From contig CAZUKV010000001.1 of the NCBI GenBank assembly GCA_964621075.1, positions 24,144 through 88,143 on the forward strand: 64,000 nucleotides of DNA, given 5' to 3'. Made by a program: the position numbers and the translations under genes. The notes beneath the pieces were generated by a model. It was not told the DNA's origin. It did no database searches and was given only the letters and a program-made list of their open reading frames with translations. The stretch is from an uncultured bacterium. GTDB lineage: Bacteria; Macinerneyibacteriota; Macinerneyibacteria; Macinerneyibacteriales; Macinerneyibacteriaceae. This document shows, piece by piece, positions 8,646-62,685 of the stretch (position 1 is the stretch's first letter; every line of letters starts with the position of its first letter).

Positions 8646-8658
8646 TTTTCCTCCTTAA

Positions 8659-18950: not shown

Positions 18951-19766
18951 TTATTCCTCCTTAGCTTTAGCCATTATTTTTTTATCATATTCTTCAACAT
19001 ATTCAGGTTTAGTTACATTTTTAAATATTCCGGTTATTACTTTATCTTCTAATTCTTCTTCAGATAATTTTTCTGCCTGTTTTTTAGTTATTACACTTTC
19101 CTTAATCCATTCAAACATATCAACAGGAGTTTTCATTTTATTTCTTCTGCCAAATTGAATATGACAGTTCGTAGCTACTTCCACAATAGAAAACCCTTTA
19201 TTAGAAAATGCTTTGAAAATATAATTTTCCATCTGTTTAGGATTAGTTACCGACGCTCTTGCAGCAAATGTAGCACCGGCCCCAATTGCAAGATCCATAA
19301 AATTAAATGAATTATCAATATGACCATATTGAGCAGTTGAAGCAAAATAAGATTTGGGTGTTGTTGGAGAATACTGGCCTCCAGTCATGCCATAAATATT
19401 ATTATTAAATACTATAGCAGTAACGTCAATATTTCTTCTTGCTGCATGAATTAAATGATTTCCTCCAATTGCTCCTGCATCACCATCACCTGTATATACA
19501 ACAACATTTAGTTTTGGTTTTGCCATTTTTATTCCTGTTGCAAAGGCAAGAGCCCTACCATGTAATGTGTGAAGGCTGTTAAAATCGAGATATCCGGTAG
19601 CTCTACTTGAACAACCAATTCCAGATATTGCCATTACATCATCTTTTTTCCATCCCATTTTATCAATAGCCCTAATGGAGCTCTTCAAAATAATACCATT
19701 CCCACATCCAGCACACCATATATGAGGAAATTTATCCTGTCTAATATATTTATTATAATCAAACAT
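18951..19766 (-). CDS. korB: 2-oxoglutarate(-type):ferredoxin oxidoreductase beta subunit (cluster 2)
   Basis: WCAGCGNG...GDGD...GGNH...NNNIYGMTGGQ TPP-binding motifs. Confidence 0.8.
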   Translation of the reverse strand: MFDYNKYIRQDKFPHIWCAGCGNGIILKSSIRAIDKMGWKKDDVMAISGIGCSSRATGYLDFNSLHTLHGRALAFATGIKMAKPKLNVVVYTGDGDAGAIGGNHLIHAARRNIDVTAIVFNNNIYGMTGGQYSPTTPKSYFASTAQYGHIDNSFNFMDLAIGAGATFAARASVTNPKQMENYIFKAFSNKGFSIVEVATNCHIQFGRRNKMKTPVDMFEWIKESVITKKQAEKLSEEELEDKVITGIFKNVTKPEYVEEYDKKIMAKAKEE

Positions 19767-19767
19767 A

Positions 19768-25993: not shown

Positions 25994-26697
25994 TACTCTT
26001 TTTCTTTATCTTGCTCTTTTTCTTCATCCTTTTTCTTAGATTTCTCCGTTTTTTCTTCTGTTTCTACTTCTTTTTTAGATTCATCATCTTTTTTTTCTTC
26101 TTCATTTTTTTCTACCTTTTCTTCTTCTCTTTTTTCTTTTTCTTCTTTTTCTTCTTTTTCTTCTTTTTCTTTTTTATCTTTTTTTTCTTCTGTTTTATCT
26201 TGTTCTTGAGACTTTTCATTTTCTTTTTCTTCTACTTCATCTTCTTCTGACTCAACAACTAAAGAAAAATTAGCTTCAAATCCCTGTGCAAATTTTATTT
26301 TAACATCATACTCGCCAACGGTACTTATGTGTTTTTCAAGAACAATATATTTCCTGTCAATTTCTACATCTTCCTGTTTTTTTAATGCATCTTCGATATC
26401 CTGTGTAGTAACAGTACCAAAAAGTCTTCCCTGTTCACCTGTTTTTTGTTCAACAACGATCTTTTTTCCTTTAACAGCATCTAATTTCTCCTGGTAAACA
26501 GATTCTTCTCTTTGGATTTTATTTTTCTGTAATTCTAATAAATTTTCCACCATCTTTTTTGTTTTTTTGTTATATGGAAGGGCTAATCCATTTGGAATTA
26601 AATAATTTCTTGCATATCCATCTTTTACTTCTACAATTTCACCCTTCTCTCCAAGATTTGACATATTTTCTTTAAGTACTATTTTCATGATTACCAC
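25993..26697 (-). CDS. rplI: 50S ribosomal protein L9 with a C-terminal K/E-rich low-complexity tail of about 85 aa
   Basis: The N-terminal 150 aa is canonical L9 (MKIVLKENMSNLGEKGEIVEVKDGYARNYLIP). It is followed by EEKKDKKEKEEKEEKEEKEKREEEK... Confidence 0.8.
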   Translation of the reverse strand: MVIMKIVLKENMSNLGEKGEIVEVKDGYARNYLIPNGLALPYNKKTKKMVENLLELQKNKIQREESVYQEKLDAVKGKKIVVEQKTGEQGRLFGTVTTQDIEDALKKQEDVEIDRKYIVLEKHISTVGEYDVKIKFAQGFEANFSLVVESEEDEVEEKENEKSQEQDKTEEKKDKKEKEEKEEKEEKEKREEEKVEKNEEEKKDDESKKEVETEEKTEKSKKKDEEKEQDKEKE

Positions 26698-28063: not shown

Positions 28064-28129
28064 TTCTATGAGATAATCATAATATATTATAAAATAGTGT
28101 CAACATAGAAATAAAAAAAAATATACAGC

Positions 28130-35443: not shown

Positions 35444-35473
35444 TTAGTTACCTCCTTTCAAAACAATAACAAC

Positions 35474-35501
35474 TTGACACTTAATATATTTTATTTATAA
35501 T
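35474..35501 (+). promoter_or_regulatory. Putative sigma70 promoter of the TPR gene (TTGACA-N16-TATAAT)
   Basis: TTGACA at 35474-35479 and TATAAT at 35496-35501. GGGGAGG RBS precedes the ATG at 35551. The -35 context AACTTGACACTTAAT also occurs in the 61-bp repeat. Confidence 0.45.
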
Positions 35502-44196: not shown

Positions 44197-45111
44197 TTAA
44201 TAATATTCTTTTATCTTATGAGCTAAATCATATATATAAGAGATATTTTGAAACATTTCTTCCTTATATCCTGATATAAATAGCGGAACAGGATTTTTCG
44301 TATGTCCGGGAATACTTAAATCTTCTATATTTCCGTGGTCAGAAACTAATATAAGGGTATCCTTATTAAAATGGAAGTTGTCAAGAAGGGTTTTAAAAAA
44401 TTCTTCTAAATCACTTAAAACTTCTAAGGCTTTATCTTCATCTTTTTTATGTCCTATCATATCTGTCTTAAAATATTCAAAAAGTGTAAAGTCATTCTTT
44501 CCTGAAATTTCCAATAAATTATGTGCCCCATCAGAGGGTGTAATCAATGGGATTTTCTCTAATAAATTTTTATTATAGTAGGCTTCATATTCAGGAATAA
44601 ATTTTTCAATTTTCTTAAGAAATTTATTATCTTTCCTATCTATTAAACTGAGGTTTGTTATATCATGATACACTGCTTTTCCTTTTATTATTTTATCCAA
44701 CCCACGAACCTTTTTTTCTATTTCTATGGTCATATATGATGTTGCGGATAAAAATCTGCTTTTTTTTAATATTTCTAAATTATCTATTATATAACCATTT
44801 GCAAAGGTGAATTTCTTATTATTATCTCTCAAATATTTGAATATTGATTTTTCTTTTAGCAGCTTTTTCAGAAGTTTATTTGGAAAACCTTCTTTGTGAG
44901 AGCCATTAATCGCCGAAGCATTCAATCCTGTAAAAATTGAAGTCTGTCCCGTAGCACTTTGAGGAACTCCTTTTATGCCCATTACAGGATCAACAGGTTC
45001 AGCTTCTTCAAATAATAATTTTCTTAAAACTGGTAAATTTTCAGCAAAAAAAGGATTGTTTTCTTTTTTACTTCTAATGCCCATTCCATCCACGAATATA
45101 AATAAAATCAT
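44197..45111 (-). CDS. Alkaline-phosphatase-superfamily metalloenzyme (cofactor-independent phosphoglycerate mutase / phosphopentomutase-like)
   Basis: N-terminal FVDGMG and C-terminal LVSDHGN metal-binding motifs of the 'metalloenzyme' domain. Confidence 0.55.
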   Translation of the reverse strand: MILFIFVDGMGIRSKKENNPFFAENLPVLRKLLFEEAEPVDPVMGIKGVPQSATGQTSIFTGLNASAINGSHKEGFPNKLLKKLLKEKSIFKYLRDNNKKFTFANGYIIDNLEILKKSRFLSATSYMTIEIEKKVRGLDKIIKGKAVYHDITNLSLIDRKDNKFLKKIEKFIPEYEAYYNKNLLEKIPLITPSDGAHNLLEISGKNDFTLFEYFKTDMIGHKKDEDKALEVLSDLEEFFKTLLDNFHFNKDTLILVSDHGNIEDLSIPGHTKNPVPLFISGYKEEMFQNISYIYDLAHKIKEYY

Positions 45112-45115
45112 TTGC

Positions 45116-45703
45116 CTACCCTTTAATTATAAAATAAAAAAACCCCCATTTATTAAAAGTAAGTGTAGGAGCTAAAAAATATTTTTTAAATTTTCTTAAA
45201 CTAACCATTATTATTTTATTATTCCATCGTGGATCATATATATATAATTTATTTTTTGAATATCCAACTATTAAACTAAAATGCCCTTGAAATGTTCGGT
45301 CTATTTTTTTTTCAGGATACCAATTAAAAAAAACCGGATATCCATCGTTTAAATAACTTTTGATTAGATTAATATTTTTCTTATACAAATTATTACTGAG
45401 GATAGCTCTACTTTTATATCCATAGTTGTATCTATATTCAATATTATAGCCTTTTTCTTTTAATTTTCTTAAAATTTCAAGGCTGTATGCTCCTCTTTTT
45501 ACTTTTTTTAAATCAAATATTTTATTGTGAACATAATCCTGGTTATATTTTTCCCCAATTTTTTCAAGCATAATAGCAACTACAGTTTCTCCGCAAAAAT
45601 CTTTTTTCTGTTTTATTGGATTATAGTCTAAAAATAAAGAAAGTGAAAAAATGTTGCTAATCAAAATTAGAAAATATAAAATTAATATTAATTTCTTTTG
45701 CAT
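45116..45703 (-). CDS. Secreted papain-like (C39-like) cysteine peptidase domain protein
   Basis: Signal peptide. Candidate catalytic Cys (FCGETV) and His (GHFSLIVGY) at the spacing seen in C39-like domains. Weak call. Confidence 0.35.
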   Translation of the reverse strand: MQKKLILILYFLILISNIFSLSLFLDYNPIKQKKDFCGETVVAIMLEKIGEKYNQDYVHNKIFDLKKVKRGAYSLEILRKLKEKGYNIEYRYNYGYKSRAILSNNLYKKNINLIKSYLNDGYPVFFNWYPEKKIDRTFQGHFSLIVGYSKNKLYIYDPRWNNKIIMVSLRKFKKYFLAPTLTFNKWGFFYFIIKG

Positions 45704-46584
45704 ACGAGACTTTTTTTATCAACCCCAATTTTATCAGCAATAACAGAACATTTAGCCATTAGTAAAAAAAACAAGTTTTTATTTTTTTCTTCGCTAAGAG
45801 ATTCAAAATTGCCCTGTCCTTTTGCAATAATAACATCAGAATCATTAAAAATTTCTTGATATTTTTCGGTTACATTATCCATTATAGTACCGGGAGCATT
45901 ATCCCCATTAGAGATAAGTTCTGCATAATTATCCATTCCAACCTGTAAGCCATCTTCCATTGTTATATCATTTATTACTGGATATCCTCTAACACCATAG
46001 TAGTATTTATTTATTTGTGGAAATCTTTTTTTTAAAACCCTAATAAAAATTTTGTCAAAAACAATCTCCCCACAATTATCTCCAATAATCATAACAGAGG
46101 AACTTTCTCTCAAATACTTTTTCAATAAATTACTATCATCAACTTTTAATGATTTTTTTTCAATATCATCTATTGTATTAAAAACTTCTTCTTCTTTTAA
46201 AGAGTGCTTTACTCCAAAATCAATTATATTTCCTGAAATTACCATCTTGACTAAATATTTAAAATTTTTTTTATCCAATTTTTTATAGAGATCTTTCTCC
46301 ATTTCAAGAATTTTCTCGTTGTAATATTTTTTTTTCTTTTTGTAGGGATCTTCGGTATTAATTAATTTATATATTACAGGATATATTCTTTTTGCAAGAT
46401 GTGGCGGGGTGTTTTTATTATAATCAATATCTTTTAAAATGGTTAAAATTTTTTTTATCATTTCTTCAATATCCTTGTTTTTCAAATTGCTATCTTCAGC
46501 TAAATTTAAAGCCTGGTTGATAAAACATGGAACACACTTAAAAGTTGTTTTCATTTTCACTCCTATCCTTTTATTATTACTCAC
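45688..46584 (-). CDS. DUF89 family protein (ARMT1-like damage-control phosphatase)
   Basis: N-terminal CVPCF motif plus GDNCGE and KGQGNFE motifs characteristic of DUF89. Confidence 0.65.
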   Translation of the reverse strand: MSNNKRIGVKMKTTFKCVPCFINQALNLAEDSNLKNKDIEEMIKKILTILKDIDYNKNTPPHLAKRIYPVIYKLINTEDPYKKKKKYYNEKILEMEKDLYKKLDKKNFKYLVKMVISGNIIDFGVKHSLKEEEVFNTIDDIEKKSLKVDDSNLLKKYLRESSSVMIIGDNCGEIVFDKIFIRVLKKRFPQINKYYYGVRGYPVINDITMEDGLQVGMDNYAELISNGDNAPGTIMDNVTEKYQEIFNDSDVIIAKGQGNFESLSEEKNKNLFFLLMAKCSVIADKIGVDKKSLVCKRN

Positions 46585-46594
46585 CAGGTAAATA

Positions 46595-47362
46595 TTATAT
46601 AATTTTTTTCAGAAAGGCAAGAACTCCATCAATATTTTGAAAACTATATGAACTAAAAGAAGATTCTTTACCCTTAGGAGATATATAAATTGATTTAAAT
46701 CCTCTTTTGGATAATGGTATAATATCATTATCCTCATCATTCCCAATTATTAAACAATTTTTGTTTTTTACCGACAAATAATTTAATTTTTTTTCAAGTA
46801 ACTCATATATTTGAGGGTCGGGTTTTGAAATGCCAATTTTATAAGAAAAAAAAACCAAATCAGAATTAAAATAATAATCAAAAGAACGTTCTAAAAAATC
46901 ATTTAATATTCGTTTTGTATAAAATTGAGCATTTGACATTATTCCCTGGTATAAATTTTTTGACCTTATATAGTTTAAAATCTTTTCTACATTCTTTCCA
47001 ATCTCTACGGGATTGACTGCTTTTTCAAAAATAATTGCTATTTTTTCCAGCGTAGCTCTTCTAAAATTTTTTTGAAACTTTTTTTTCATAAATATATCCC
47101 ATAGTTTAATTATATTAATTTCTGGACTTATTATATTTTCATTCTTTTTTTTCTTTCTTTTTTGTAATTCTTTAACAAGATTTCTGTATAATTTTTCGCC
47201 CTTATCGGGGTCAATTTCAAGATTTAAAAAATCACCAATCCGCTGAAACCCTTTTTTAAATTTTGAATATTTCCCAGGATCAACAGGAATCTCCATATTA
47301 GCAGAATAGAGAATAGTACCATAAATATCCCAGATAACAGCTTCAACCTTCATATTATCCAA
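46595..47362 (-). CDS. HAD-superfamily hydrolase (candidate glycosyl-3-phosphoglycerate phosphatase)
   Basis: HAD motif I AVIWDIYGTIL and a C-terminal GNDEDND motif IV-like segment. Confidence 0.65.
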   Translation of the reverse strand: MDNMKVEAVIWDIYGTILYSANMEIPVDPGKYSKFKKGFQRIGDFLNLEIDPDKGEKLYRNLVKELQKRKKKKNENIISPEINIIKLWDIFMKKKFQKNFRRATLEKIAIIFEKAVNPVEIGKNVEKILNYIRSKNLYQGIMSNAQFYTKRILNDFLERSFDYYFNSDLVFFSYKIGISKPDPQIYELLEKKLNYLSVKNKNCLIIGNDEDNDIIPLSKRGFKSIYISPKGKESSFSSYSFQNIDGVLAFLKKII

Positions 47363-48608
47363 AAATAGTTCTTATTATCTGTTTTAAATTATATTTTAAT
47401 ACATCATAAGAAAAATATTTTTTACCAATCCTGTAATTATTTTCAACCATCTTTTTTCTGTAATTTTTATCTTCTAAAACCTTTTTTACTTTTTCAACAT
47501 TTTTATCCGTCAGATAATCATTCATTGAAATTGTGTTAAATCCCTTGGGTTCAATATCCTTTATATATATACTGTATCGATTAACAAGTATTGGTTTTTT
47601 GAACAATATTGCTTCTAAAAAAGCATTTCCAAAACCTTCAAAAGATGAAGGATAGGTAACAAAATCAGCATGAGGATAAACATCCCATAGAGTATATATT
47701 CTTTCCCAATTTTTTCTATACTTGTTTGGTTTATGAAGTTTGTTATTAATATAATAAACATCAATACCTTCCCTTTTTGCATAATCAATTATCCAGTTAT
47801 AATAATCCAAACCTTCATCTGAAGAGGAATGTGTAATCACCAGTTTAATCTTATCATTATCCAATCTTCGAACAAGATCAATTGAGTGTTCTATTCCTTT
47901 ACGAGCCACAATTCTTGTTGGTTGTAAAAAAATAATATCATCATCTTTAAAATCAAAATCTTTTTTAAAATTGGCTCTTTTTTCTTTATCAATATTAATC
48001 TCTCTATCAAAATTTATAACATTAGGAATAATTTTAGAAGCTATCCCTCTTCTGGCAGCAAGCTGCTGCTGGGCGATAGAATTAATAACTACATGATGAA
48101 TAAAAGGGAGATTTGGAGGAAATGACATTGATAGATAATCCTGGAAAGCATTAATTAGATAACGCCTTCTCTCCCAGGCAAAATCGTGATGGTGCCCTAT
48201 TGTTGGAATTCCTCTTTCAATAATAACTTCTGTTAACGCTAACCCCAGAGGTATATTCATTGGAATACTCAGAGCATTTTCCACAATAACTAAATCAATT
48301 TTATACTTATCCAAAAAAATATTTAATCTAATTTTTAATAATTCTTTTATCTCATCTATTTTTTTTGTCATTTCAGGAGGTCTAATTTTAGTTGACTGTA
48401 ATTTATCATTAATACTTTTTATTTCAGGATGCTTAAAAAAAGCTTTTTCACATAAATAGCTTTTTGATGAAGGCTTTTCCAGCTCTCCTGCAAACCAGTA
48501 TATCCTATGCCCGAACTGTTTTAAAACATCAGCCCATTTATCAGCCTCAAGTGAAACACCATCAAGTCCTGCAAATCGCGTACCAATAAAACCAATATTT
48601 AATTCCAA
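47355..48608 (-). CDS. GT4-type glycosyltransferase (GT-B fold)
   Basis: C-terminal GT4 hallmark EGFGNAFLEA (E-x7-E region) and the N-terminal domain of GT-B glycosyltransferases. Confidence 0.6.
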   Translation of the reverse strand: MELNIGFIGTRFAGLDGVSLEADKWADVLKQFGHRIYWFAGELEKPSSKSYLCEKAFFKHPEIKSINDKLQSTKIRPPEMTKKIDEIKELLKIRLNIFLDKYKIDLVIVENALSIPMNIPLGLALTEVIIERGIPTIGHHHDFAWERRRYLINAFQDYLSMSFPPNLPFIHHVVINSIAQQQLAARRGIASKIIPNVINFDREINIDKEKRANFKKDFDFKDDDIIFLQPTRIVARKGIEHSIDLVRRLDNDKIKLVITHSSSDEGLDYYNWIIDYAKREGIDVYYINNKLHKPNKYRKNWERIYTLWDVYPHADFVTYPSSFEGFGNAFLEAILFKKPILVNRYSIYIKDIEPKGFNTISMNDYLTDKNVEKVKKVLEDKNYRKKMVENNYRIGKKYFSYDVLKYNLKQIIRTIFG

Positions 48609-48621
48609 AATACCCTCCTAA

Positions 48622-50106
48622 TTAATAATTTAACAATAATCTATAATATTCTATTTTTAAAAAAGATTTCAAAATTGATTTATCAATTTTTTTATCACGT
48701 TGTTTCTTAACAGCTTCATTATCTTCTTTTATTTTCATGACTATATCCTTAATTCTTTGGGTGTTTTTTTTCAATGAAAAATTGTCTAATTCAACTCCCT
48801 GTTTTAAGTATCCACTTGATAATTTTCGAATGTTTTTTTCTATTTCGCTATTTAATTCTTTAATTTCTGCGAAATTTTCCTTATTTAAAATTTTCCACTG
48901 GTTTTCAACATCAAGGTAGGAGAAATCAACTATATTTTTATCAATTTTTTTATATATGTCTTCTTTTAGGATCTCTTTTCCTCTTTTGTTTAAATCAATC
49001 ATATTGAGATAATTTTTATATTTTTTAATTACATCATCTTTCATCCTATCATCTAATTTAATATTTAAAGAACTGTAATAACTGTATTTGGGAATATTTT
49101 TGAAATCTTGAACGATATCAATCTCTCTAACATAAAAATTTTTATTATATTTTTTTGATTCTAAAAATATCAGGCCAAAACCCTCCAGAACGGATGAAGA
49201 AAAAAACAAATCACAACCACGAATAAGATTATTATAAATTCCTTTATATTTTTTTGATACTGACCAGATACCCCTGATTTTATTTTTTTTGAAAACATCT
49301 TTTACAATTTTTTCATATTTTTTTTCTTTTCGAGAATTCGAAGGAAGCGTAACAAAAAGAAAACTTTTTTCTACAATAATATTTATTAATGCCGCTTCGA
49401 GGATATTTTTCCTTCTTATAGTTCGAACAGGATATAGCAGTAATAAATCATCGTTTCTTATTAAACATCTATCTTCAATTTTATTGATAATTTTTTTTCT
49501 TTCTTCCTGTTTTTTAAAATTTTCTTTTTTTGTATTAATGGCATTTGGAAGATAAAATATTTTTGTCTCAGGAATTCCAGCCTGTAATAATCTTTTTAAA
49601 TCCCCTTTATTAATTGTAATATAGTAAATATTTTTATCTACTGGATATAAAGAATTGGAAATATATTTATTTAAAAATGAAAGATTGTTAATTCTACCAC
49701 ATTCGGGAAAATCATGAATTTGAAACAATATTTTCATATTTTGTTCAAGAGCAAGTTCAATAATTGCCTCTGTAAATGGAGGATTTTTACCCAGATTATA
49801 GTTATGAACCCAAATAATAGAATCAAAATCAATATAATTCAACAAATAGTTTTTTATTTCTGATTTATAAGAATAAAAACTTTCTTGCGTAAGCTCATTT
49901 TTATATAAATATTTTAATTCAGGTACATCATGAAATTTAATATTTTCTTTATTTAGAAGATCTTGAATACCTTCTATCCCCATTTTTTTTGATCCATAAA
50001 GATGGATTTCATATTCACTAAATAATGAATTAGAAATATTTTTAATTACACTCGTAACCCCACCTTTTATATAATGATAGTGTATAATTGAAACTTTCTT
50101 TTTCAT
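48622..50106 (-). CDS. Large GT-B glycosyltransferase-like protein (GT4-like core, EGFGLIFLES)
   Basis: HYHYIKGGV N-terminus and a C-terminal EGFG motif. The roughly 200-aa C-terminal extension is uncharacterised. Confidence 0.5.
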   Translation of the reverse strand: MKKKVSIIHYHYIKGGVTSVIKNISNSLFSEYEIHLYGSKKMGIEGIQDLLNKENIKFHDVPELKYLYKNELTQESFYSYKSEIKNYLLNYIDFDSIIWVHNYNLGKNPPFTEAIIELALEQNMKILFQIHDFPECGRINNLSFLNKYISNSLYPVDKNIYYITINKGDLKRLLQAGIPETKIFYLPNAINTKKENFKKQEERKKIINKIEDRCLIRNDDLLLLYPVRTIRRKNILEAALINIIVEKSFLFVTLPSNSRKEKKYEKIVKDVFKKNKIRGIWSVSKKYKGIYNNLIRGCDLFFSSSVLEGFGLIFLESKKYNKNFYVREIDIVQDFKNIPKYSYYSSLNIKLDDRMKDDVIKKYKNYLNMIDLNKRGKEILKEDIYKKIDKNIVDFSYLDVENQWKILNKENFAEIKELNSEIEKNIRKLSSGYLKQGVELDNFSLKKNTQRIKDIVMKIKEDNEAVKKQRDKKIDKSILKSFLKIEYYRLLLNY

Positions 50107-50112
50107 TTATTT

Positions 50113-51090
50113 TTACCTTTTTTCCCTGTTAAATTTTAATCTATATTCTGGAATCTTTATCATTGGAGGCCTTTCTATTTTCATAATTTTTGTTTTTTTC
50201 ATAATATGATCGCCTTCTCTTAATTCAATACTTACATGATCCTCATTCATATCAGTTTTTAATTTAATTTTATTATTTTTATCCAATCTATCCAAAGCTG
50301 TTTTTAATAAAGCAAAAGCCATTTTGCTTAAAGCCTGGATATTCTGATTGCGATGGATCCTCATGTCAAGATCCACCTGCCCGATTTTATCTATACCATA
50401 ATTTTCATAAATATCAATTAAATGAGCCGTTTCAACCCCATATCCAACAGCAAAAGATAATTTTTCAAGCAAATCTCTTCTTCCTGCATATTCTCCGCTC
50501 AAAGGCTGAATTATTGTTGCTAATTCAGGATAAAAAGTTGAAAACATCGGCCTGGTCTGAATTTCAGTAACCCTTCCTCCACCGGACGGCTGAAATGATT
50601 TTTTGCCGGTTATTGGTCTTTCATAAAAAGCCTTTACATAAGATAAATTATCATTTGTGAGAAGCGCTCCTACAAGACCATAAACAAATTTAGGATGTAT
50701 GTTGTCTATATCAGCATCTATCCAAACTATTATATCTCCATCAAGAACATAAAGACTTTTCCATAAATTTTCCCCCTTACCCTTATAAAATCCATATTTG
50801 GGGAGGATATTTTTTGAAGTATAAACTTTTGCCCCGTATTCATTTGCTATTTCTCTGGTTTTATCTTTGGAGCCTGAATCAATAACTACAATTTCATCAA
50901 GCAAGGGAAATTTATCCATTAATTCATTCTTTATAATTAAAACTTCTTTTCCTATTGTTTTTTCTTCATTGAGTGTTGGGAAAGCAAGTGAAATTTTCAA
51001 ATTCTTTTTCTCTTTTAATTTTACAAGTTTGTTTATATCCTTGAATTTTTCATGATGGAATGTTGATTTTAAAATTTTTTTACTGCTCAT
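50113..51090 (-). CDS. gpgS: Glucosyl-3-phosphoglycerate synthase family (GpgS/MpgS-like, GT81) glycosyltransferase
   Basis: Colinear similarity to mycobacterial GpgS as recalled from memory: GKGENLWKSL, WIDADIDNIHPKFVYGLVGALL, VKAFYERP, GGGRVTE, QPLSGEYAG, GYGVE, QVDLDMRIHRNQ. Confidence 0.8.
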   Translation of the reverse strand: MSSKKILKSTFHHEKFKDINKLVKLKEKKNLKISLAFPTLNEEKTIGKEVLIIKNELMDKFPLLDEIVVIDSGSKDKTREIANEYGAKVYTSKNILPKYGFYKGKGENLWKSLYVLDGDIIVWIDADIDNIHPKFVYGLVGALLTNDNLSYVKAFYERPITGKKSFQPSGGGRVTEIQTRPMFSTFYPELATIIQPLSGEYAGRRDLLEKLSFAVGYGVETAHLIDIYENYGIDKIGQVDLDMRIHRNQNIQALSKMAFALLKTALDRLDKNNKIKLKTDMNEDHVSIELREGDHIMKKTKIMKIERPPMIKIPEYRLKFNREKR

Positions 51091-52250
51091 TCTTCCTCTT
51101 TCTTTTCAAAAAAAGATATTCCTTTTTTTAAAACCTTTAATACCTGTTTAATGCCAACAATTATTGAATCTTTAGTTATATACTCATCATCTATCTTAAT
51201 TTGTCCTTCTGCTATACCCAAAGATACTGTTGGTATATTTTTCTGAAGTAAAACAGCTGCTTCATCTCTTATAACTTTTAAAGAAGACTCAATAGAATAT
51301 TGCTTATGAATTTTAATAATTTCATCAATGAAAGGATGATTTGCCATAAAATAATTTGCTGAAGAATGTCCGACTAATTCCAGCTGTATTTTTGTATCCA
51401 GTTCCCTTGACATTTTATTAATTGTAGAAGTTAATATTTGATTTTCATATTCAAGATACTGGCTTTTTCTGCTCAAAAGTTCCAGCTTCATAACCCCTTC
51501 ACTGGGAACTGCTTCAACTTTAGATTTTGATTTAATATCAATGATATTAATGAAAGTACATGATTTTTCAGGCCACCCAATGCTTTTTAAGCGAGCTCCA
51601 ATCTCTGTTAAAATATCCATTGCAGATAATTTATTTGGACAATCACAAATATTTATCAAATCAATAGGTTTGGTTTTTACCCAGATCTTATAAAGATATT
51701 TTCCAAGCGATTTGTACCCAATATCTCCAAGAGATATACTATCAATATCAAGTGCAAAAACAATATCATCATTACAATTAGATAAAAAATAATTTAAGGT
51801 TTTAAAATTTTCTTCGATGTTAGAAAAATCCAAAAATAAGAAAATAATATTATATTTAAATTCAATTTTATACTTAAATAAAAAATCAATTAAATTTAAA
51901 ACAGCAGTTACTTTTAAAGAATTATCAATTATCCCCCTTCCATGCATCTTATCCTTATCCAGCTGTATTAACCTGTCAACCCTGGAAATCTTTTTTAAAT
52001 TCATAGGGACCATTACCAGGACTGATTTCTTTGTTAAACTGGGAGAGTGAAAATATTCTACCATGATATTTCCCACATCATCTCTTTCTATCTTGGGAAC
52101 CTCCATTTCATGCAGCCTATTAATTATAAATTCCTTATGAGAATCAGGATTATCGCTCGAAAATGGTAGCTGGTTATAAAGTATTGTATCTGTTAGAATA
52201 TTTTCTTTTAAATCTTTAATATCATTTATCTTGCTTTCAAAATCATCCAT
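51087..52250 (-). CDS. Divergent M20/M28-like zinc-peptidase homologue (possibly non-catalytic), first gene of the operon
   Basis: HGRGIIDN resembles the M20 GRGxxDxKG motif. The other metal ligands are not obvious. AGGAGA RBS. Confidence 0.4.
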   Translation of the reverse strand: MDDFESKINDIKDLKENILTDTILYNQLPFSSDNPDSHKEFIINRLHEMEVPKIERDDVGNIMVEYFHSPSLTKKSVLVMVPMNLKKISRVDRLIQLDKDKMHGRGIIDNSLKVTAVLNLIDFLFKYKIEFKYNIIFLFLDFSNIEENFKTLNYFLSNCNDDIVFALDIDSISLGDIGYKSLGKYLYKIWVKTKPIDLINICDCPNKLSAMDILTEIGARLKSIGWPEKSCTFINIIDIKSKSKVEAVPSEGVMKLELLSRKSQYLEYENQILTSTINKMSRELDTKIQLELVGHSSANYFMANHPFIDEIIKIHKQYSIESSLKVIRDEAAVLLQKNIPTVSLGIAEGQIKIDDEYITKDSIIVGIKQVLKVLKKGISFFEKKEEE

Positions 52251-52279: not shown

Positions 52280-52307
52280 ATTATATAATTCTCAATTGAT
52301 ATTTCAA
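52280..52307 (-). promoter_or_regulatory. Putative sigma70 promoter (TTGAAA-N16-TATAAT on the minus strand) for the 52250 to 44197 operon; -35 lies inside repeat copy 1
   Basis: Minus strand: TTGAAA (plus 52307-52302), 16-nt spacer, TATAAT (plus 52285-52280). The ATG is at 52250. Confidence 0.5.
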
Positions 52308-52359
52308 CACTTTATATACCAGGTTTTTAGATTAAAAACTTGACACTTAATTAGAATAT
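52299..52359. repeat. 61-bp perfect repeat, copy 1 (contains palindrome GTTTTTA-N3-TAAAAAC at 52323-52339)
   Basis: Identical to 55067-55127: ATATTTCAACACTTTATATACCAGGTTTTTAGATTAAAAACTTGACACTTAATTAGAATAT. Confidence 0.9.
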
Positions 52360-52382
52360 AAGAAATTATCTTCTATCATTTG

Positions 52383-53000
52383 TTATAATTGTTTAATAAA
52401 ATCAAAAAAATCATCAATAGGATTCACTTGATAGTTATCTTTTTTATATAAATTAATAATTTTTTTAGATTTGTTATCAACTAGTAAGAGAATAGGACCA
52501 GTGTAAATTTTATTTTTTTTGAACCATTTGTACCTATCACAGTAATATACTTCTTTTTTTATGAAATATTTATTTTTCTTTATTTTCATATTTATTTTAT
52601 TATAACCAATTATTAAAACCTTAACATTTTTAAAATCTAAAATATTTAAATACTTTACCATTTCATGAATACACTGTCCGCAATAAGATTTAGGAATTAC
52701 CATTACTAATAAATACTGATAGATAGGTCTCTCACAATAAATGAAAGTATCATCTTTTAGTCTTTTAAACTTAGAAAAGTTTAATTTTCTCCCTAATAAC
52801 TGATATCTATCTTTTTGATACTTATATCTTTTTTTGTAAAAATTTTTATAAATTTTTAGTTTTTTATTCTTTTTGTAAAAATAAAGTAATAGCATAAATA
52901 AACAAAGAACAATTACAACCTTTGATAAATTACTCATGCATAAATATTTTCCGCTTGATATTTTCAACAAATAAATCGAGCTCAAAATTATAAAATTCAT
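52383..53000 (-). CDS. Membrane-anchored/secreted protein with a CxxC motif (thioredoxin-like?), function unknown
   Basis: N-terminal hydrophobic segment. YCGQCIHEM CxxC. Paralogous in layout to 52930-53508. Confidence 0.3.
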   Translation of the reverse strand: MNFIILSSIYLLKISSGKYLCMSNLSKVVIVLCLFMLLLYFYKKNKKLKIYKNFYKKRYKYQKDRYQLLGRKLNFSKFKRLKDDTFIYCERPIYQYLLVMVIPKSYCGQCIHEMVKYLNILDFKNVKVLIIGYNKINMKIKKNKYFIKKEVYYCDRYKWFKKNKIYTGPILLLVDNKSKKIINLYKKDNYQVNPIDDFFDFIKQL

Positions 53001-53508
53001 TATTTTCCCTAATTACTAAATCTATAACATTATTTGATAATTTATCATACAATAAAAATACTGGACCTGTTTTTATGCCATTATTTTTTAGCAATCCATT
53101 CTTCTTTAACAAAAAAGAAGGATACTTTTTTCCTGTTAAAATAAAAGATTCTCCAACATTTTCTCGAAACTTAATTATTGCAACTTCTTTTGAAATAATA
53201 CTACTGATTTTTTGTCTAAAATCAAAAAGACATGAATTGCAATTTAATTTTGATAATAATACAAATAAAATATACCTTTTATTTATATTAGAATAACAAA
53301 AATGATCACTTCTTTTTTCAGGAGTATATCTTATATAATTAAATTTTTTTCTGGTTTCAAAAATTTTAACTAATTTAAACTCTTTCAATATTAAATTTTT
53401 ATAATCAGCAGTAAGATTTTGTGTTTTTTGTTTTTTACAACCCCCAATAAATAAAATACCAAAAACTATAGACATAAAAAATGTTTTTACATATATTTTT
53501 TTTTTCAT
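52930..53508 (-). CDS. Lipoprotein with a CxxC motif (thioredoxin-like?), function unknown
   Basis: Signal peptide with lipobox (IGGC). NCNSCLF CxxC. Similar size and layout to the downstream gene. Confidence 0.3.
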   Translation of the reverse strand: MKKKIYVKTFFMSIVFGILFIGGCKKQKTQNLTADYKNLILKEFKLVKIFETRKKFNYIRYTPEKRSDHFCYSNINKRYILFVLLSKLNCNSCLFDFRQKISSIISKEVAIIKFRENVGESFILTGKKYPSFLLKKNGLLKNNGIKTGPVFLLYDKLSNNVIDLVIRENNEFYNFELDLFVENIKRKIFMHE

Positions 53509-54572
53509 TGTTTATCCTTGAGAAATTCATATGTTTTTATAACGACTGTATTATCATTTTTTGTTAATCTATCAGGAATAAAAGTTTTCAATATCCCATC
53601 TAAATTATAACTTACCTCTACTTCCCTATAAAACTTTTCGTTTTCTTTAAAAGATTTTTTTTCTTTTAACTTTTTAATTAATTTACCATTTATATCCACT
53701 ATTATTTTTTTATCTATCAACATCAAACTTCCCTCTTTGTTAAAATATATTGGAGTTTTGTAGTAATTTTTTTCTATATGAGAATTGATTTCTCTTAAAA
53801 AATTACCATTAAGATCATATACATCTATAGATTTTTCACATTTTGCATTTTTGAAAGGATCTTTGCTTAACGCTTTAGAACTTGTATGCCATACTTCATT
53901 TGCAATATAGATCCTATCATTTTTCAACACTGATGGTTCCCAGGCAACATATGAAGTATGTTTAAATTTATCATATTTATTAATTATCTTGAAATTTTTA
54001 TCAAGAATAAAATTCTTATAATTCCCTTTATAATTACTATTGTTAAAAGTATAAATTCTATTATTAACAAAAGTCATTTGACTTAAACCAGACATACTCT
54101 CATACATTAGCAAAAACGACTTCAAATGTTTGATTTTTTTGCTTTCTATTTTGTAAATATTAAATCTATTTAAAACAATATCATAAGTTAAAATTTTATT
54201 TTTACTCAAAAACAAAAAATCTGAAATAGACAGAAAATCTCCTGGTCCTTTTCCTCTATCCCCAGCTTTTCCAATAAATTTACCGTTTTGTTTATTAAAA
54301 ATATACACTGATGTATAATTACCTCTTGCTAATAGTCCAATATACTTGTTATTTATTTTCAAACTAATGATATTCCCTAATCCAAACTCTAAGTATAGAA
54401 TATACTTATTTTGTAATGTAAAAAGATTCGTAAAATTTTCTGATTTTTTTATTCTTTTCAAATCTTTTTTTCTTATTGATACTCGATCTAACAATTTTTT
54501 TTCTTTCCTACAACTAAAATTAAAACCAAGAATTGCAACAAGACAACATAATAGAAAAATTTTTTTGTACAT
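53505..54572 (-). CDS. Lipoprotein, possibly a beta-propeller, function unknown
   Basis: Lipobox (FSC). Repeated ...Y...D/N...G... segments suggestive of beta-propeller blades. Weak call. Confidence 0.3.
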   Translation of the reverse strand: MYKKIFLLCCLVAILGFNFSCRKEKKLLDRVSIRKKDLKRIKKSENFTNLFTLQNKYILYLEFGLGNIISLKINNKYIGLLARGNYTSVYIFNKQNGKFIGKAGDRGKGPGDFLSISDFLFLSKNKILTYDIVLNRFNIYKIESKKIKHLKSFLLMYESMSGLSQMTFVNNRIYTFNNSNYKGNYKNFILDKNFKIINKYDKFKHTSYVAWEPSVLKNDRIYIANEVWHTSSKALSKDPFKNAKCEKSIDVYDLNGNFLREINSHIEKNYYKTPIYFNKEGSLMLIDKKIIVDINGKLIKKLKEKKSFKENEKFYREVEVSYNLDGILKTFIPDRLTKNDNTVVIKTYEFLKDKQ

Positions 54573-54630
54573 AAGAAATCCTTTTCTGTTAATATATTTA
54601 ATTCAAAGGGGGAATCATTTTACATAATAT

Positions 54631-54939
54631 TTACCAGCACTGGAATGTTACATCACATTCTTTCATGTTTCCTTCATAACAATAATTCATTTTCCCAGTC
54701 CTTATAATTTCACTTCCATCCGGTGTCACTTCGATAACAACACAAGACATATATCCTAATTTATAAAAATCTCCAAATGCATCTCTTATACCCTGCCCAG
54801 AGCTTCCGCCTGGAAGCTCACCAGACACCCCATCTATTATCTCAATAAGTCTTCTGTTAGGAGATGTCTGGGCTTTAATAAGAGATAAACAAAAAAACAT
54901 AAAAAAAATCAATAATATAATAAATATTTTTTTATTCAT
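54631..54939 (-). CDS. Small secreted Cys-rich protein (102-aa precursor, mature form about 80 aa)
   Basis: Signal peptide ending ...LIKA. Five Cys in the mature part (C-terminal ...CYEGNMKECDVTFQCW). Confidence 0.5.
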   Translation of the reverse strand: MNKKIFIILLIFFMFFCLSLIKAQTSPNRRLIEIIDGVSGELPGGSSGQGIRDAFGDFYKLGYMSCVVIEVTPDGSEIIRTGKMNYCYEGNMKECDVTFQCW

Positions 54940-55046
54940 AACAACTCCTTTATAATTAAACTATATATTCACAGAATTCCCCCTACTATAATAATATAAC
55001 AAAAAAAAAAAATACAACATCTATTTTTTTAATTATAATTTTTGGT

Positions 55047-55075
55047 ATTATAAAAAAGTTATTATTATATTTCAA
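55047..55075 (-). promoter_or_regulatory. Putative sigma70 promoter (TTGAAA-N17-TATAAT on the minus strand) for the Cys-rich peptide gene; -35 lies inside repeat copy 2
   Basis: Minus strand: TTGAAA (plus 55075-55070), 17-nt spacer, TATAAT (plus 55052-55047). Same architecture as copy 1. Confidence 0.45.
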
Positions 55076-55127
55076 CACTTTATATACCAGGTTTTTAGAT
55101 TAAAAACTTGACACTTAATTAGAATAT
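55067..55127. repeat. 61-bp perfect repeat, copy 2, in the divergent intergenic region between the Cys-rich peptide gene and HU
   Basis: Identical to 52299-52359, including the 7-3-7 palindrome. Confidence 0.9.
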
Positions 55128-55192
55128 GTTAATCTTTTTTTCAGACATTACTATCTTATTAGTATTTAACAACATAACTTGCAGGAGGAATA

Positions 55193-55468
55193 ATGACAAA
55201 GAATGATTTGAGTGAAAAAATATGGAATAGATATGAAGAACTTACAAAAAAAGAATCAAAGGAAATTATTGACCTTTTGATGAAAGAAATAAAAAATGCT
55301 TTGAAAAATAATGATAGTGTGGAATTGAGGGGATTTGGTACTTTCAAAACAAAAATTAGAAAAGCCCGTACAGCAAGAAACCCGCATACAGGGGAACAAA
55401 TTGAAGTTCCAAGAAAAAAAGTTCCTTATTTTAAACCCTCACCGAAATTTAAAGAAAAAGTGAATTAA
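55193..55468 (+). CDS. HU/IHF family DNA-binding protein
   Basis: ELRGFGTFKTKIRKARTARNPHTGEQIEVP is a canonical HU arm. Confidence 0.85.
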   Translation: MTKNDLSEKIWNRYEELTKKESKEIIDLLMKEIKNALKNNDSVELRGFGTFKTKIRKARTARNPHTGEQIEVPRKKVPYFKPSPKFKEKVN

Positions 55469-55479
55469 GGAGGTGTAGT

Positions 55480-55575
55480 ATGAGCTCTGTAAAGAAAAAA
55501 AGAAAAAAGAAAATGAACAAACATAAAAGGAAAAAAAGATCAAGAAAAAACAGGCATAAGAAAAAGAAAAAATAA
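55480..55575 (+). CDS. 31-aa extremely basic Lys/Arg-rich peptide (MSSVKKKRKKKMNKHKRKKRSRKNRHKKKKK), apparently co-transcribed with HU
   Basis: AAGGAGG RBS 6-7 nt upstream of the ATG and only 11 nt after the HU stop. Followed by a strong terminator. Not in the ORF track because it is short. Confidence 0.45.
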   Translation: MSSVKKKRKKKMNKHKRKKRSRKNRHKKKKK

Positions 55576-55597
55576 ATAATCAACCTTATATAAATAT

Positions 55598-55635
55598 AAA
55601 ACACCCAAAATTTTTTGGGTGTTTTCCTATTTTTG
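55598..55635 (+). terminator. Rho-independent terminator after the HU-basic peptide unit
   Basis: AACACCCAAAA-tt-TTTTGGGTGTT hairpin followed by TTCCTATTTTTG. Confidence 0.7.
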
Positions 55636-55684
55636 TTAATATTCCTTGCAATAACAATTTTTTTGTATTATATTTTACCTGATT

Positions 55685-57085
55685 ATGAATAATTATACTT
55701 TAATTTACAAAGATAATAAAAATAATTATACAATACCCCTTTTACTTTCCAAACATAATTATGATTTTAGTACTACATATTCAGAAGAATATCTAATTGA
55801 AAATGCAAAAAATAACAAATTGGTTATTATGGACCTATCAACTTTCAATCATAAAAAATTATCAATTCTGGAAGAAATAATTAACAATGATATTTCTATA
55901 ATTATAGTCGCTGATAAAATATCAAATGAGAACTTAAAAAAACTTATAAAATACAAAATAAAATACTATTTTGATCGACCATTTAATGAAAAAGAATTTA
56001 TTTCAACAATAAAAAAATCCTTTTCAGAAATAAAATTAAAAAATAAAAATGAACAACTGGTAAATAAATTAAAAGAAAAAATAAACAAGTTTCAACTATT
56101 AAATAAAACTTCTAAAATGATCAATTCAAAACTCGACATAAACATTATTCTGAAAAAATTAATGAAAAATATTGGCGATATTGTAGATGCTGAAGCCTGG
56201 ACATTGTTCAGTTATAATAAAGAAACAAATAAGTTAATATTTAAGTATGTTGTAGGTGAAAAATCAGAACAATTACTCGGAAAATCATTAAATGTAGACC
56301 AGGGAATTGTTGGATGGGCAGCTTCAAATCAAGAAAGTATACTTGTAAAAAATGTTAATAAAGATAGTAGATTTTATAAATATTTTGATAAAAAAACAAA
56401 TTTTAAAACCAAAAGTTTAATCTGTGTACCAATTATTTATAGAAATGAACTTCTTGGAGTAGTTGAAGTTGTAAACAAAAAACACGGACGATCATTTACT
56501 GAGGAAGATCTAAATATTATGGAAATTCTTGTAGATAATGCTGCCATCGCTATAAAAAACTCATATCTACTTGAACAAATTTATCAAATTACCCTTAAAG
56601 ACCATCTTACCGATTTATATAACTTTCGGAAACTAAATAATATAATTGACAAAAACTATAAGAATAAAAAACCCTTCGCTTTAATTTTCATGGATTTAGA
56701 TGACTTTAAAAAAGTTAATGATAACTTCGGTCATGATTATGGTAGCAAAGCTTTAATTGAATTTTCAGAAATATTGAAAACTATTATAGATAATAATGAT
56801 TATGCTTTTAGATATGGTGGGGATGAATTTATTGTCATTTTAGAAGATAGAGATCTAAATTTAGCCATCGATTTCGCCAAAACAATTTTAAAAAAAGTTA
56901 AAAACCATACATTTTTAAAAAAAGATAATCTTCAGGTTAAATTAACTTTAAGTGTAGGAATTTCACATTATCCGCTAATATCTAAAAAGAAAAAAGATAT
57001 CTTAACTCAAGCTGACCAGGCTATGTATAAAGTAAAAAAAAGAAAAAAAGATAATTATGCAATTTTTGGAAAACCAATCAATTAA
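55685..57085 (+). CDS. GGDEF diguanylate cyclase with N-terminal receiver-like and central GAF domains
   Basis: GGDEF domain (RYGGDEFIVIL, FMDLDDFKKVND). GAF-like segment around GIVGWAASNQESILV. Confidence 0.8.
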   Translation: MNNYTLIYKDNKNNYTIPLLLSKHNYDFSTTYSEEYLIENAKNNKLVIMDLSTFNHKKLSILEEIINNDISIIIVADKISNENLKKLIKYKIKYYFDRPFNEKEFISTIKKSFSEIKLKNKNEQLVNKLKEKINKFQLLNKTSKMINSKLDINIILKKLMKNIGDIVDAEAWTLFSYNKETNKLIFKYVVGEKSEQLLGKSLNVDQGIVGWAASNQESILVKNVNKDSRFYKYFDKKTNFKTKSLICVPIIYRNELLGVVEVVNKKHGRSFTEEDLNIMEILVDNAAIAIKNSYLLEQIYQITLKDHLTDLYNFRKLNNIIDKNYKNKKPFALIFMDLDDFKKVNDNFGHDYGSKALIEFSEILKTIIDNNDYAFRYGGDEFIVILEDRDLNLAIDFAKTILKKVKNHTFLKKDNLQVKLTLSVGISHYPLISKKKKDILTQADQAMYKVKKRKKDNYAIFGKPIN

Positions 57086-57133: not shown

Positions 57134-57208
57134 ACGGGGTGTAGCGCAGTCCGGCAGCGCACATGCATGGGGTGCATGGTGTCGGAGGTTCAAATCCTCT
57201 CACCCCGA
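57134..57208 (+). tRNA. tRNA-Pro (anticodon GGG); coordinates +/-2 nt
   Basis: Cloverleaf: acceptor CGGGGTG/CACCCCG, D arm GCGC-AGTCCGGCA-GCGC, anticodon arm CATGC-AT GGG GT-GCATG, T arm GGAGG-TTCAAAT-CCTCT, discriminator A. G37 follows anticodon GGG. Confidence 0.8.
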
Positions 57209-57237
57209 TTTTTATAATGAATGCGGGGGTACAATTT

Positions 57238-57417
57238 ATGAAAAAAGAAAAATTGAAAAGAATTGATGAATTATGGCATAAACAAAAAACAGAAGGTCTA
57301 ACGGATGAAGAAAAAAAAGAACAACAAAAATTAAGAAAAGAATATTTGAAATCTATTAAAGGAAATTTAAAGGCTCAGCTGGAAAATATAAAAAATATAA
57401 GAGAATCAAAGAATTAA
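57238..57417 (+). CDS. UPF0291/DUF896 family small protein (YnzC-like), start trimmed to the Met after the tRNA
   Basis: MKKEKLKRIDELWHKQKTEGLTDEEKKEQQKLRKEYLKSIKGNLKAQLENI resembles the Bacillus YnzC family. The longer ORF (57163) overlaps the tRNA. Confidence 0.55.
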   Translation: MKKEKLKRIDELWHKQKTEGLTDEEKKEQQKLRKEYLKSIKGNLKAQLENIKNIRESKN

Positions 57418-61632: not shown

Positions 61633-62685
61633 ATGTTAGAAAATAAAAGAAAAACCTTTAAAGATTTTAACAATTTTCATAAATATTATACTTATTTAAG
61701 AAAAGATAAAAATTTAAAAGATTTTAACTACAATACCCTATTAAAACATACCCATCCTATAAACCAAAAAGCACGTAAACAATATCAAACTTATAAGATT
61801 AAGTTACTTGAAAAAATAAAAAATAGATTAAAAAAAGAATTTGATAATTCTTTAGTAGACAGACAAATCAAAAAGGAATATTTTTTTGATGAAGACCCTT
61901 TAGATTTTAAGATTGAAAAGAAACCCGCTTCAATATTTGATTTAAAAGACAAAGCTACTAATTTTTATACTCAAATTTTAAAACTTGCTAAAAATAAATT
62001 TAATATAAGAAATTTCGATAAATGCCCTGTTTGTAAGGGGAAAAATAGAATTTTTCTTAAAGAACAGTATAATAACAGGGAATCTCTTGTACTTTGTCCA
62101 CATCTCTATAATAAAATTATTCCTACAACAAATATAAAAAAACGTTTTAAAGATAAGGGTTATTCTGATTTTATGGTAGAAGAAGAAAATCAAACTGCTT
62201 ACAATGCTTTAAAAGAATATAAAGAAAATTTCGACATCGTTTTAAATAATGGGGAAAGTTTATTATTAATAGGAGATGTGGGGACTGGAAAAACTCATCT
62301 TGCTATAGCAACAATACTGGATTTGACATACAAACCAACTTTTTATTATTATAAACTTATAAGTAAAAAATATATTAGTCTGCCAATATTTTTAAATGAT
62401 TTAAAAACTTCAAAAGATGAAAGATTATTAAAATACTATTCTGAATCTACTTTTCTTGTTATTGATGATTTGGGAATTGAAAATTTAAACAACTGGGCAA
62501 GAGAAAAAGTCTTTACACTTGTAAATAAAAGGTATCAATCAAAATTACCAACTCTTTTTATTTCTGATCTATCTCCTGTAGAACTTGTAGAGAAACTTGA
62601 TAAAAGAATAATGTCAAGATTACATGAAATGGCAAGAGGTGTGGTTATTGGCGGAGAAGATAAAAGAAAACAATTAGAATTTTAA
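61633..62685 (+). CDS. DnaI/DnaC-like AAA+ helicase-loader protein with an N-terminal Cys/His zinc-binding segment
   Basis: Walker A GDVGTGKTHL and Walker B LVIDDLG. N-terminal CPVCKGK...LCPHLY. Confidence 0.65.
   Translation: MLENKRKTFKDFNNFHKYYTYLRKDKNLKDFNYNTLLKHTHPINQKARKQYQTYKIKLLEKIKNRLKKEFDNSLVDRQIKKEYFFDEDPLDFKIEKKPASIFDLKDKATNFYTQILKLAKNKFNIRNFDKCPVCKGKNRIFLKEQYNNRESLVLCPHLYNKIIPTTNIKKRFKDKGYSDFMVEEENQTAYNALKEYKENFDIVLNNGESLLLIGDVGTGKTHLAIATILDLTYKPTFYYYKLISKKYISLPIFLNDLKTSKDERLLKYYSESTFLVIDDLGIENLNNWAREKVFTLVNKRYQSKLPTLFISDLSPVELVEKLDKRIMSRLHEMARGVVIGGEDKRKQLEF

Follow-up and report, generated by a model that had tools for sequence, protein, structure and literature searches.

Why does a perfect direct repeat of 61 nucleotides (nt) stand on either side of a block of four genes, upstream of neighbors that do not align with each other, and does it mark a shared regulator? 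The question arises in a 64,000-nt stretch of DNA (here called the window) from contig CAZUKV010000001.1 of an uncultured bacterium of the family Macinerneyibacteriaceae. One copy of the repeat, called R (ATATTTCAACACTTTATATACCAGGTTTTTAGATTAAAAACTTGACACTTAATTAGAATAT), lies between the block and an eight-gene operon that begins with an M20-like gene and the gene for GpgS, and the other lies between the block and hup, which encodes an HU/IHF-family protein (Table 1). An earlier note on this DNA had taken R for the upstream and -35 region of two co-regulated promoters. Our analysis leads to a different reading, which we consider probable: R is the duplicated core of a native divergent promoter region, and it brackets an accessory block that can be deleted by crossover between the two copies and whose old alleles have been gained, lost, or swapped. 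The block is an ordinary kind of strain-variable gene island and not evidence of a shared regulator.

Copies, alleles, and promoter context of the repeat

The two identical copies reported earlier are indeed present, and the searches brought up no others in the window. Either half of R, allowing up to three mismatches, matched the window only at the two R sites (0 matches expected from shuffles); the flanks of the two copies, 5' gene ends included, are unrelated on either side, and a shuffle test found no residual similarity outside the 61-mer. Exact-match scans of genome, metagenome, and viral collections with the R core returned nothing, the JGI contigs that carry R evidently lying outside the scanned metagenome set, and in ~100 kb of related loci R was not found apart from the orthologous site. 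As far as these searches reach, R is not the widely scattered selfish repeat that the earlier note had named as grounds for giving up its own view. That R belongs to a dispersed selfish family, like a miniature inverted-repeat transposable element or a repetitive extragenic palindromic sequence, or that its duplication is an assembly artifact, is extremely improbable. R is short, AT rich, and hairpin containing, as such a reading would have it, but in addition to this distribution, R is single copy and syntenic in alleles that lack the block, and the filled structure was assembled independently in a contig built with k = 141, a length exceeding the repeat (L011), and in a 120-kb scaffold (L001).

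Public assemblies were looked up via the neighboring HU protein and then via the M20-like homolog, and the locus was found in three allelic states. The site is empty in 10 contigs (L002-4, L006-10, L021, and L022) from at least seven assemblies, which join position 52359 to position 55067 via exactly one R. These include one metagenome-assembled genome (MAG) at NCBI and contigs from k = 141 assemblies, in which k exceeds the repeat length. The empty contigs closely resemble the window in their flanks (zero differences in L007 and L010 and 1 difference in 3.9 kb in L002/L003), and they represent at least three distinct haplotypes. In the populations sampled, no other allele is as common as this single-copy empty arrangement. 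Variant 1, the allele of the window, also occurs in L011-L013, and L011 is 100% identical to the window from 55086 to 52241, through the block and R copy 1 into the operon. Filled and empty forms were recovered from the same assembly in ERZ27257089 (L011 and L003) and in 3300007537 (L012 and L010); therefore, the two alleles coexist. All of L011-L013, from three assemblies, stop exactly at R position 20, as expected if assembly graphs branch at a polymorphic spot. As a side observation, positions 1 to 153 of L007 have no match to the window while the remainder is 100% identical, which may reflect a rearrangement or a chimeric contig end.

The third state, variant 2, is found in L001, whose flanks are 96.6 to 100% identical to those of the window but whose four-gene block is only 44 to 76% identical, with the break in identity falling exactly at the inner edges of R. 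The nucleotide identity given for variant 2 is 65 to 76%, and the flanks of this strain are ~97.5% identical to those of the window. Synonymous divergence (dS) between L001 and the window is 0.76 to 1.15 in the four block genes versus 0.06 to 0.14 in seven flanking genes. The blocks are therefore old alleles, or imports from a diverged lineage, in a young shared background, and they do not merely encode fast-evolving proteins. R itself matches the age of the flanks, differing at 3 of 61 positions between L001 and the window. Within L001, the copies agree with each other at every one of 64 nt, both carrying the three substitutions that set them apart from the window pair. A third R type is found in the empty alleles L021 and L022. 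Among strains, variation in R is confined to position 51 and to a hypervariable 4-nt spot at positions 20 to 23 (ACCA, AACT, or TAGT), which lies at 7053-7056 and 9894-9897 in L001 and is also variable in the L021/L022 intergenic region.

Two apparent signals in the flanks were considered and discarded. A recombination breakpoint at R in the empty alleles L004 and L006 was rejected, their divergence beginning 200 to 400 nt to the right of R. Divergence of L001 is raised in the 5' end of the M20-like gene beside copy 1 (P = 9e-7), and we had taken this as flanking DNA hitchhiking with the block; the proposal was withdrawn because variation in this segment extends to the empty alleles L021 and L022, which share seven of the L001 variants beside copy 1. 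The raised divergence is shared with empty alleles and therefore is not a footprint of block transfer.

The nearest genomes are L016 ("Candidatus Mcinerneyibacterium aminivorans") and the MAG L017, whose GpgS proteins are ~80% identical to that of the window and whose candidate phylum appears at NCBI as "Candidatus Macinerneyibacteriota"; a literature search on the genus name gave no match. In both genomes the M20-like gene and hup are divergent neighbors, and both homologs of the block genes and the repeat are lacking. We conclude that the empty arrangement came first and that the block was inserted in the species of the window. A third related lineage (L023) extends only 61 nt upstream of the M20-like gene and does not reach a neighbor. 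The conserved promoters described below are ~660 bp apart in L016 (8073-8841) and ~250 bp apart in L017 (6459-6811), in noncoding DNA with no open reading frame (ORF) longer than 36 amino acids, versus 32 bp in the species of the window; the intergenic region has therefore been compacted in the window lineage.

What R duplicates can be read from its promoter elements. The -35 hexamer of the GpgS operon lies at its left end and that of hup at its right end, with 32 bp between, and both edges of R fall within the two -35/-10 spacers; thus, R is the core of a back-to-back divergent promoter pair. On the operon side, four species-level lineages with differing spacer sequences have TTGAAA-16-TATAAT or TTGAAA-16-TATACT at a distance of 29 to 31 nt from the ATG of the M20-like gene, which bears out the earlier claim that the repeat provides the -35 box of this operon. 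On the other side, TTGACA-13-TGnTAnnnT (a 16-nt spacer) is conserved at hup in three lineages (the species of the window, L016, and L017), and in the window the spacer carries TG at 55127-55128, an extended -10 element. The suggestion that copy 2 could also affect HU was therefore well founded, as R contains the -35 hexamer of this conserved promoter.

The promoter that the earlier note assigned to the block fares less well. The two TTGAAA/TATAAT pairs that it described (52307 to 52280, 16-nt spacer, and 55075 to 55047, 17-nt spacer) are present and are the two best promoter-like matches of the region, each at 11 of 12 positions, in AT-rich DNA where such matches occur at chance density (29 found versus 30.1 expected). 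The block-side promoter, however, is missing in variant 2, where L001 has TTTATA at the position of the -10 hexamer and the scan reports no promoter. The two promoters were said to converge on one architecture from different flanking DNA; what is seen instead is a duplication flanking a strain-variable 2.7-kb insertion.

Table 1. Coordinates in the window of the repeat, its promoters, the block, and the adjoining genes
Feature	Coordinates	Strand	Remarks
R copy 1	52299-52359		Between last block gene and M20-like/GpgS operon; sharp edges; sole copy kept in empty-site contigs
R copy 2	55067-55127		Between first block gene and hup; counterpart pair in L001 identical over 64 nt
Hypervariable 4-nt spot (R positions 20-23)	52318-52321 (copy 1), 55086-55089 (copy 2)		Directly 5' of palindrome
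7-3-7 palindrome, copy 1	52323-52339		Between the two -35 boxes
7-3-7 palindrome, copy 2	55091-55107
Operon promoter	52280-52307	-	-35 TTGAAA 52302-52307 inside R; 16-nt spacer; -10 TATAAT 52280-52285 outside R
hup promoter	55108-55135	+	-35 TTGACA 55108-55113 inside R; 16-nt spacer; -10 TAATCT 55130-55135 outside R
Candidate block promoter (window variant only)	55047-55075	-	TTGAAA of R copy 2; 17-nt spacer; TATAAT from block end
Four-gene block, strain variable	52360-55066	-	2,707 bp; genes tightly packed
Block gene 1	54631-54939	-	102-amino-acid secreted protein; signal peptide; four invariant Cys
Block gene 2	53505-54572	-	355-amino-acid lipoprotein-like 6-bladed beta-propeller; DUF5128 (Pfam PF17170, E = 2e-11)
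Block gene 3	52930-53508	-	192-amino-acid lipoprotein-like CxxC protein; invariant CxxC and G-P..D motifs
Block gene 4	52383-53000	-	205-amino-acid membrane-anchored CxxC protein; 195 amino acids with TTG start at 52970
Eight-gene operon served by copy 1	44197-52250	-	M20-like, GpgS, 494-amino-acid protein, GT1, HAD, ARMT1-like, C39-like, metalloenzyme; called from ORF spacing and Pfam/NCBIfam matches
hup, served by copy 2	55193-55468	+	91-amino-acid HU/IHF-family gene

The palindrome and the idea of a shared operator

Inside R is a perfect 7-3-7 palindrome (GTTTTTA-GAT-TAAAAAC), present in both copies as the earlier note had it. In that view, one dimeric regulator binds the palindrome at about -60, so that the operon and the gene for the small secreted protein form a small regulon. 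We consider this quite unlikely; the repeat is explained by the insertion/duplication polymorphism. In the window, both copies do place TTGAAA 16 to 17 nt from TATAAT, and the operon promoter is conserved across species, but the block-side -10 is absent from variant 2. All three R types known from the strains keep the palindrome intact, but conservation of only 17 nt is nearly uninformative because the strains are ~97% identical. The comparison with orthologous intergenic regions that the earlier note had called for shows TTTTTTATAAAGTGC at the palindrome's place in the promoter regions of both L016 and L017, and the palindrome is not conserved there.

The palindrome is also statistically unremarkable, as the window contains 19 perfect 7-3-7 palindromes versus 12.8 ± 3.5 in shuffles, and a third copy of this one turned up neither in the window nor, as an exact match to the R core, in the collections scanned. 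Its fold as single-stranded DNA is weak (-4.4 kcal/mol; z = -1.66). A role of the hairpin as a terminator was considered separately and rejected, the stem being weak and no terminator-like site scoring at R. In the ACCA form of the 4-nt spot, the hairpin stem is lengthened to 10 bp, and the spot may be a scar of recombination or of a quasi-palindrome template-switch mutation.

A third occurrence of the -35 context had been cited from the promoter of another gene. The 15-mer AACTTGACACTTAAT is indeed matched exactly at 35471-35485, where it is the -35 context of a plus-strand promoter (TTGACA-16-TATAAT) with a gene at 35551, but it corresponds to the hup-facing side of R and not to the minus-strand promoters that the regulon would unite. 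At 28127, a near match provides the -35 context for another plus-strand promoter, whose gene, judged from its predicted N terminus, looks like rpsT (S20 ribosomal protein); this sequence, too, resembles the hup-facing side of R. The 15-mer at 35471 thus represents a generic -35 context in the opposite promoter orientation. The presumed second target changes as well, since the secreted-protein gene is not a single gene but the first of the tightly packed block. The palindrome exists, but apart from that an operator or a regulon has no support.

The main use of these results is that a regulatory interpretation is replaced by a documented gene-content polymorphism. Such a polymorphism can leave as its footprint a perfect intergenic repeat that resembles a common regulatory site, and for annotation the lesson is that co-regulation should not be inferred from R.

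Proposed gain and loss of the block

Three allelic states with exact junctions, conserved promoters, the age contrast between block and flanks, and the matching of R copies within each genome are direct observations; the events that link them can be proposed as follows. The accessory block of 2.7 kb would have come to lie inside the divergent promoter region, flanked by a duplication of its core (61 nt in the window and 64 nt in L001). Copy 1 with the left flank would retain the operon promoter and copy 2 with the right flank the hup promoter, so that both neighbors would keep intact promoters because the core is duplicated; in the window variant, copy 2 may also lend its outward-facing TTGAAA to the block. 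Direct repeats of 61 to 64 nt recombine, through both RecA-dependent and replication-slippage deletions. A crossover between the copies would delete the block precisely and restore the single-copy ancestral arrangement, and a block could be gained or swapped if homologous flanks recombined or if an excised circle integrated in the Campbell manner. The block exists as two or more old alleles that are highly diverged, and these would have been gained, lost, or swapped in this way in the young shared background. The matching of the two copies within a genome might arise in either of two ways: both may be refreshed from the majority single-copy allele, each being contiguous with one flank, or the duplication may be made anew at each insertion.

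Several points weigh against this reading. The event that first created the duplication is left unexplained, and the combination of matching copies with ancient block alleles requires ongoing homogenization or a fresh duplication per insertion, neither of which was directly observed. The two very different variants share the left edge of the duplication and have right edges no more than 3 nt apart, and the longer version (64 nt) is symmetric about the palindrome, covering -32 to +31 around its center. Both features would fit a site-specific mechanism. Furthermore, the allelic states were read from assembled contigs alone, several accessions may reassemble the same samples and the contig count exceeds the number of independent observations, and the activity of the promoters is presumed from conservation only.

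The site-specific alternative would make the two copies of R the attL and attR sites of an element: a recombinase encoded elsewhere would recognize a palindrome-centered site, excise the block as a circle with one R, and integrate either variant into the R of empty strains. We regard this as possible, if rather unlikely. Besides the shared edges and the symmetry, it would account for the identical direct repeats around the block, the empty site with a single copy, the constant matching of R copies within a genome, and the hypervariable spot abutting the palindrome. The block ends (52360-52379 and 55047-55066 in the window; 7098-7117 and 9855-9874 in L001) likewise show in-register inverted similarity at 12 of 20 and 13 of 20 positions, which is marginal (P = 0.035 and 0.024 in composition-preserving shuffles). 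Local alignment of the same ends, however, gave no significant terminal inverted repeats (P = 0.31 and 0.37), and the end sequences are not conserved between variants. Pfam annotation identified no recombinase, integrase, or transposase in the block or within ±10 kb of it. No contig on record has a circular or tandem block-R-block junction, a look-up through the last block gene returning only L011, and neither the window nor the scans of genome, metagenome, and viral collections yielded a further R copy or an R-flanked cassette. The 3-nt loop of the palindrome is unlike the 6- to 8-bp overlap region of tyrosine recombinase core sites, the palindrome occurs at an unremarkable frequency, and the edges of R are equally well accounted for by promoter geometry.

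It is unlikely, although conceivable, that the block is a recombinase-free or trans-mobilized cassette whose insertion duplicates a palindrome-centered target of ~64 bp in the bidirectional promoter, with the 4-nt spot as a scar or a specificity determinant. If so, insertion would automatically leave the promoters of both neighbors intact and hand one of them to the cargo, and this single site would let old cassette alleles pass from strain to strain.

Under the duplicated-core reading that we prefer, the insertion is tolerated and precisely reversible because the promoter core is duplicated. The locus then offers a clean natural example of an accessory cassette within a bidirectional promoter that disables neither neighbor, in a candidate phylum without cultured members. 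Cassette alleles far older than their background point to long-term maintenance or exchange of alternative forms of one secreted-protein module. Such a pattern of old alleles is typical of loci involved in cell-cell interactions, of which the block may be one.

The block genes, their surroundings, and known systems

The block resembles a module for a disulfide-bonded secreted protein, to judge from the predicted products: a secreted protein with four cysteines, a DUF5128 lipoprotein, and two CxxC proteins, which are distant paralogs of each other and suggest a thioredoxin-like fold. A profile search of the CxxC proteins against solved structures gave no match, and the AlphaFold models are of low confidence (pLDDT of 39 for the 192-amino-acid protein and 59 for the 102-amino-acid protein). 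The ratio of nonsynonymous to synonymous divergence (dN/dS) is ~0.5 for the two CxxC proteins and 0.15 to 0.22 for the other two block genes. The four proteins gave no match to recombinases, and defense-system models found nothing among them. Among 5.8e9 proteins the block is almost unique to the species of the window: the small secreted protein has only two variants there, and the propeller has only three relatives. Protein-based scans for more variants of the block returned remote matches (28 to 37% identity over partial lengths) or none, and for one variant with 46% identity (P0003, from SRR6056297) there is no contig on record.

Some features of the wider window deserve mention in their own right. 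Gene orientation and GC/AT skew flip at the divergent region between the operon and hup, at about 55000-56000: the minus strand carries nearly all genes at 0 to 55 kb, and the plus strand those at 55 to 62.7 kb. A gene for a 350-amino-acid DnaA/IstB-like AAA+ protein lies at 61633-62685, 6.5 kb to the right of the switch. The pattern resembles that of a replication origin, but an origin at the switch was considered and rejected; E. coli-type DnaA boxes are unclustered (29 versus 24 expected), with none at 52 to 55.2 kb. Downstream of hup, a perfect hairpin with a 12-bp stem (AAAACACCCAAAA/TTTTGGGTGTTTT, 55598-55625) scores as a terminator on both strands. The gene for tRNA-Pro(GGG) at 57135-57208 overlaps the 5' part of an 84-amino-acid DUF896 ORF call (57163-57417); other assemblies call a 59-amino-acid version, and the true start is therefore probably downstream of the tRNA gene. 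Two diverged paralogous gene sets, at 8226-9741 and 19353-20868, lie 11,127 bp apart and are ~75% identical at the nucleotide level over several segments, which looks like an old segmental duplication of a multigene unit. Finally, a low-complexity, CTT/TTC-rich, tandem-like repeat at 25981-26254, in the minus-strand ORF 25993-26697, would encode a repetitive segment rich in Lys and Glu.

How the block compares with known kinds of variable loci can be considered from several sides. In descriptive terms, as they are summarized in PMC3082526 with reference to Snyder et al., the locus is a minimal mobile element (MME) of the kind defined in Neisseria, for which that summary gives incorporation by homologous recombination in the flanks as part of the definition. 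The flanking genes (M20-like and hup) are conserved in the window, L001, the 10 empty contigs, L016, and L017; strains differ in carrying one or another whole-gene cassette or an empty site; mobility genes are absent; and divergence jumps at the cassette borders. Unlike in Neisseria, the host is an uncultured relative of "Candidatus Mcinerneyibacteriota," and the cassette is bracketed by an exact 61- to 64-nt duplication of a promoter core, which the definition as summarized there does not require.

Similar features are known from the pilus islands of group B Streptococcus, where PI-1 sits between conserved genes with direct repeats on either side and PI-2a and PI-2b are alternatives at one site (PMC4074840). 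Like these islands, the block is flanked by direct repeats, lies between conserved genes, is present or absent, has alternative variants at one site, and encodes secreted or surface proteins. It differs in size (2.7 kb versus 16 kb), in having no remnants of transposable elements, and in that the repeat itself is predicted to be functional promoter DNA of the neighboring genes.

From the side of the repeat, the nearest parallel is the putative mobile promoters (PMPs) of Matus-Garcia et al. (2012), stretches of 50 nt or more that are at least 80% identical upstream of nonhomologous genes and whose families mostly have two members that are often identical (PMC3488235). R would qualify as a two-member family of this kind (PMC3488235), with two identical copies longer than 50 nt (61 nt, 100%) that carry promoter elements before genes that do not align. 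Unlike a PMP, however, the duplication is tied to a specific polymorphic insertion and takes in the core of a bidirectional promoter; relative to the block gene, copy 2 spans -128 to -188, for the most part beyond the -50 to -150 interval of that study; and it is doubtful that variant 2 of the block uses the duplicated -35.

Other mobile elements come less close. A transposon or insertion sequence was rejected as the source of the block: the duplication is 61 to 64 nt rather than 2 to 15 bp, there are no convincing terminal inverted repeats, and there is no transposase. An integron cassette was likewise rejected, no integrase being encoded nearby and the flanking sites being identical direct repeats rather than attI and attC. 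In Campbell-type integration, an element carries a copy of its target sequence, so that integration regenerates the target, and prophages regenerate the ends of tRNA genes in this manner. Like elements between attL and attR sites, the block has identical direct repeats and a single-copy empty site, and the function that it interrupts is regenerated; unlike in such elements, an integrase, a circular form, and other integration events were not detected, and the target is a promoter core and not a gene end. What distinguishes this locus is its flanking repeat, which is a duplicated bidirectional promoter core.

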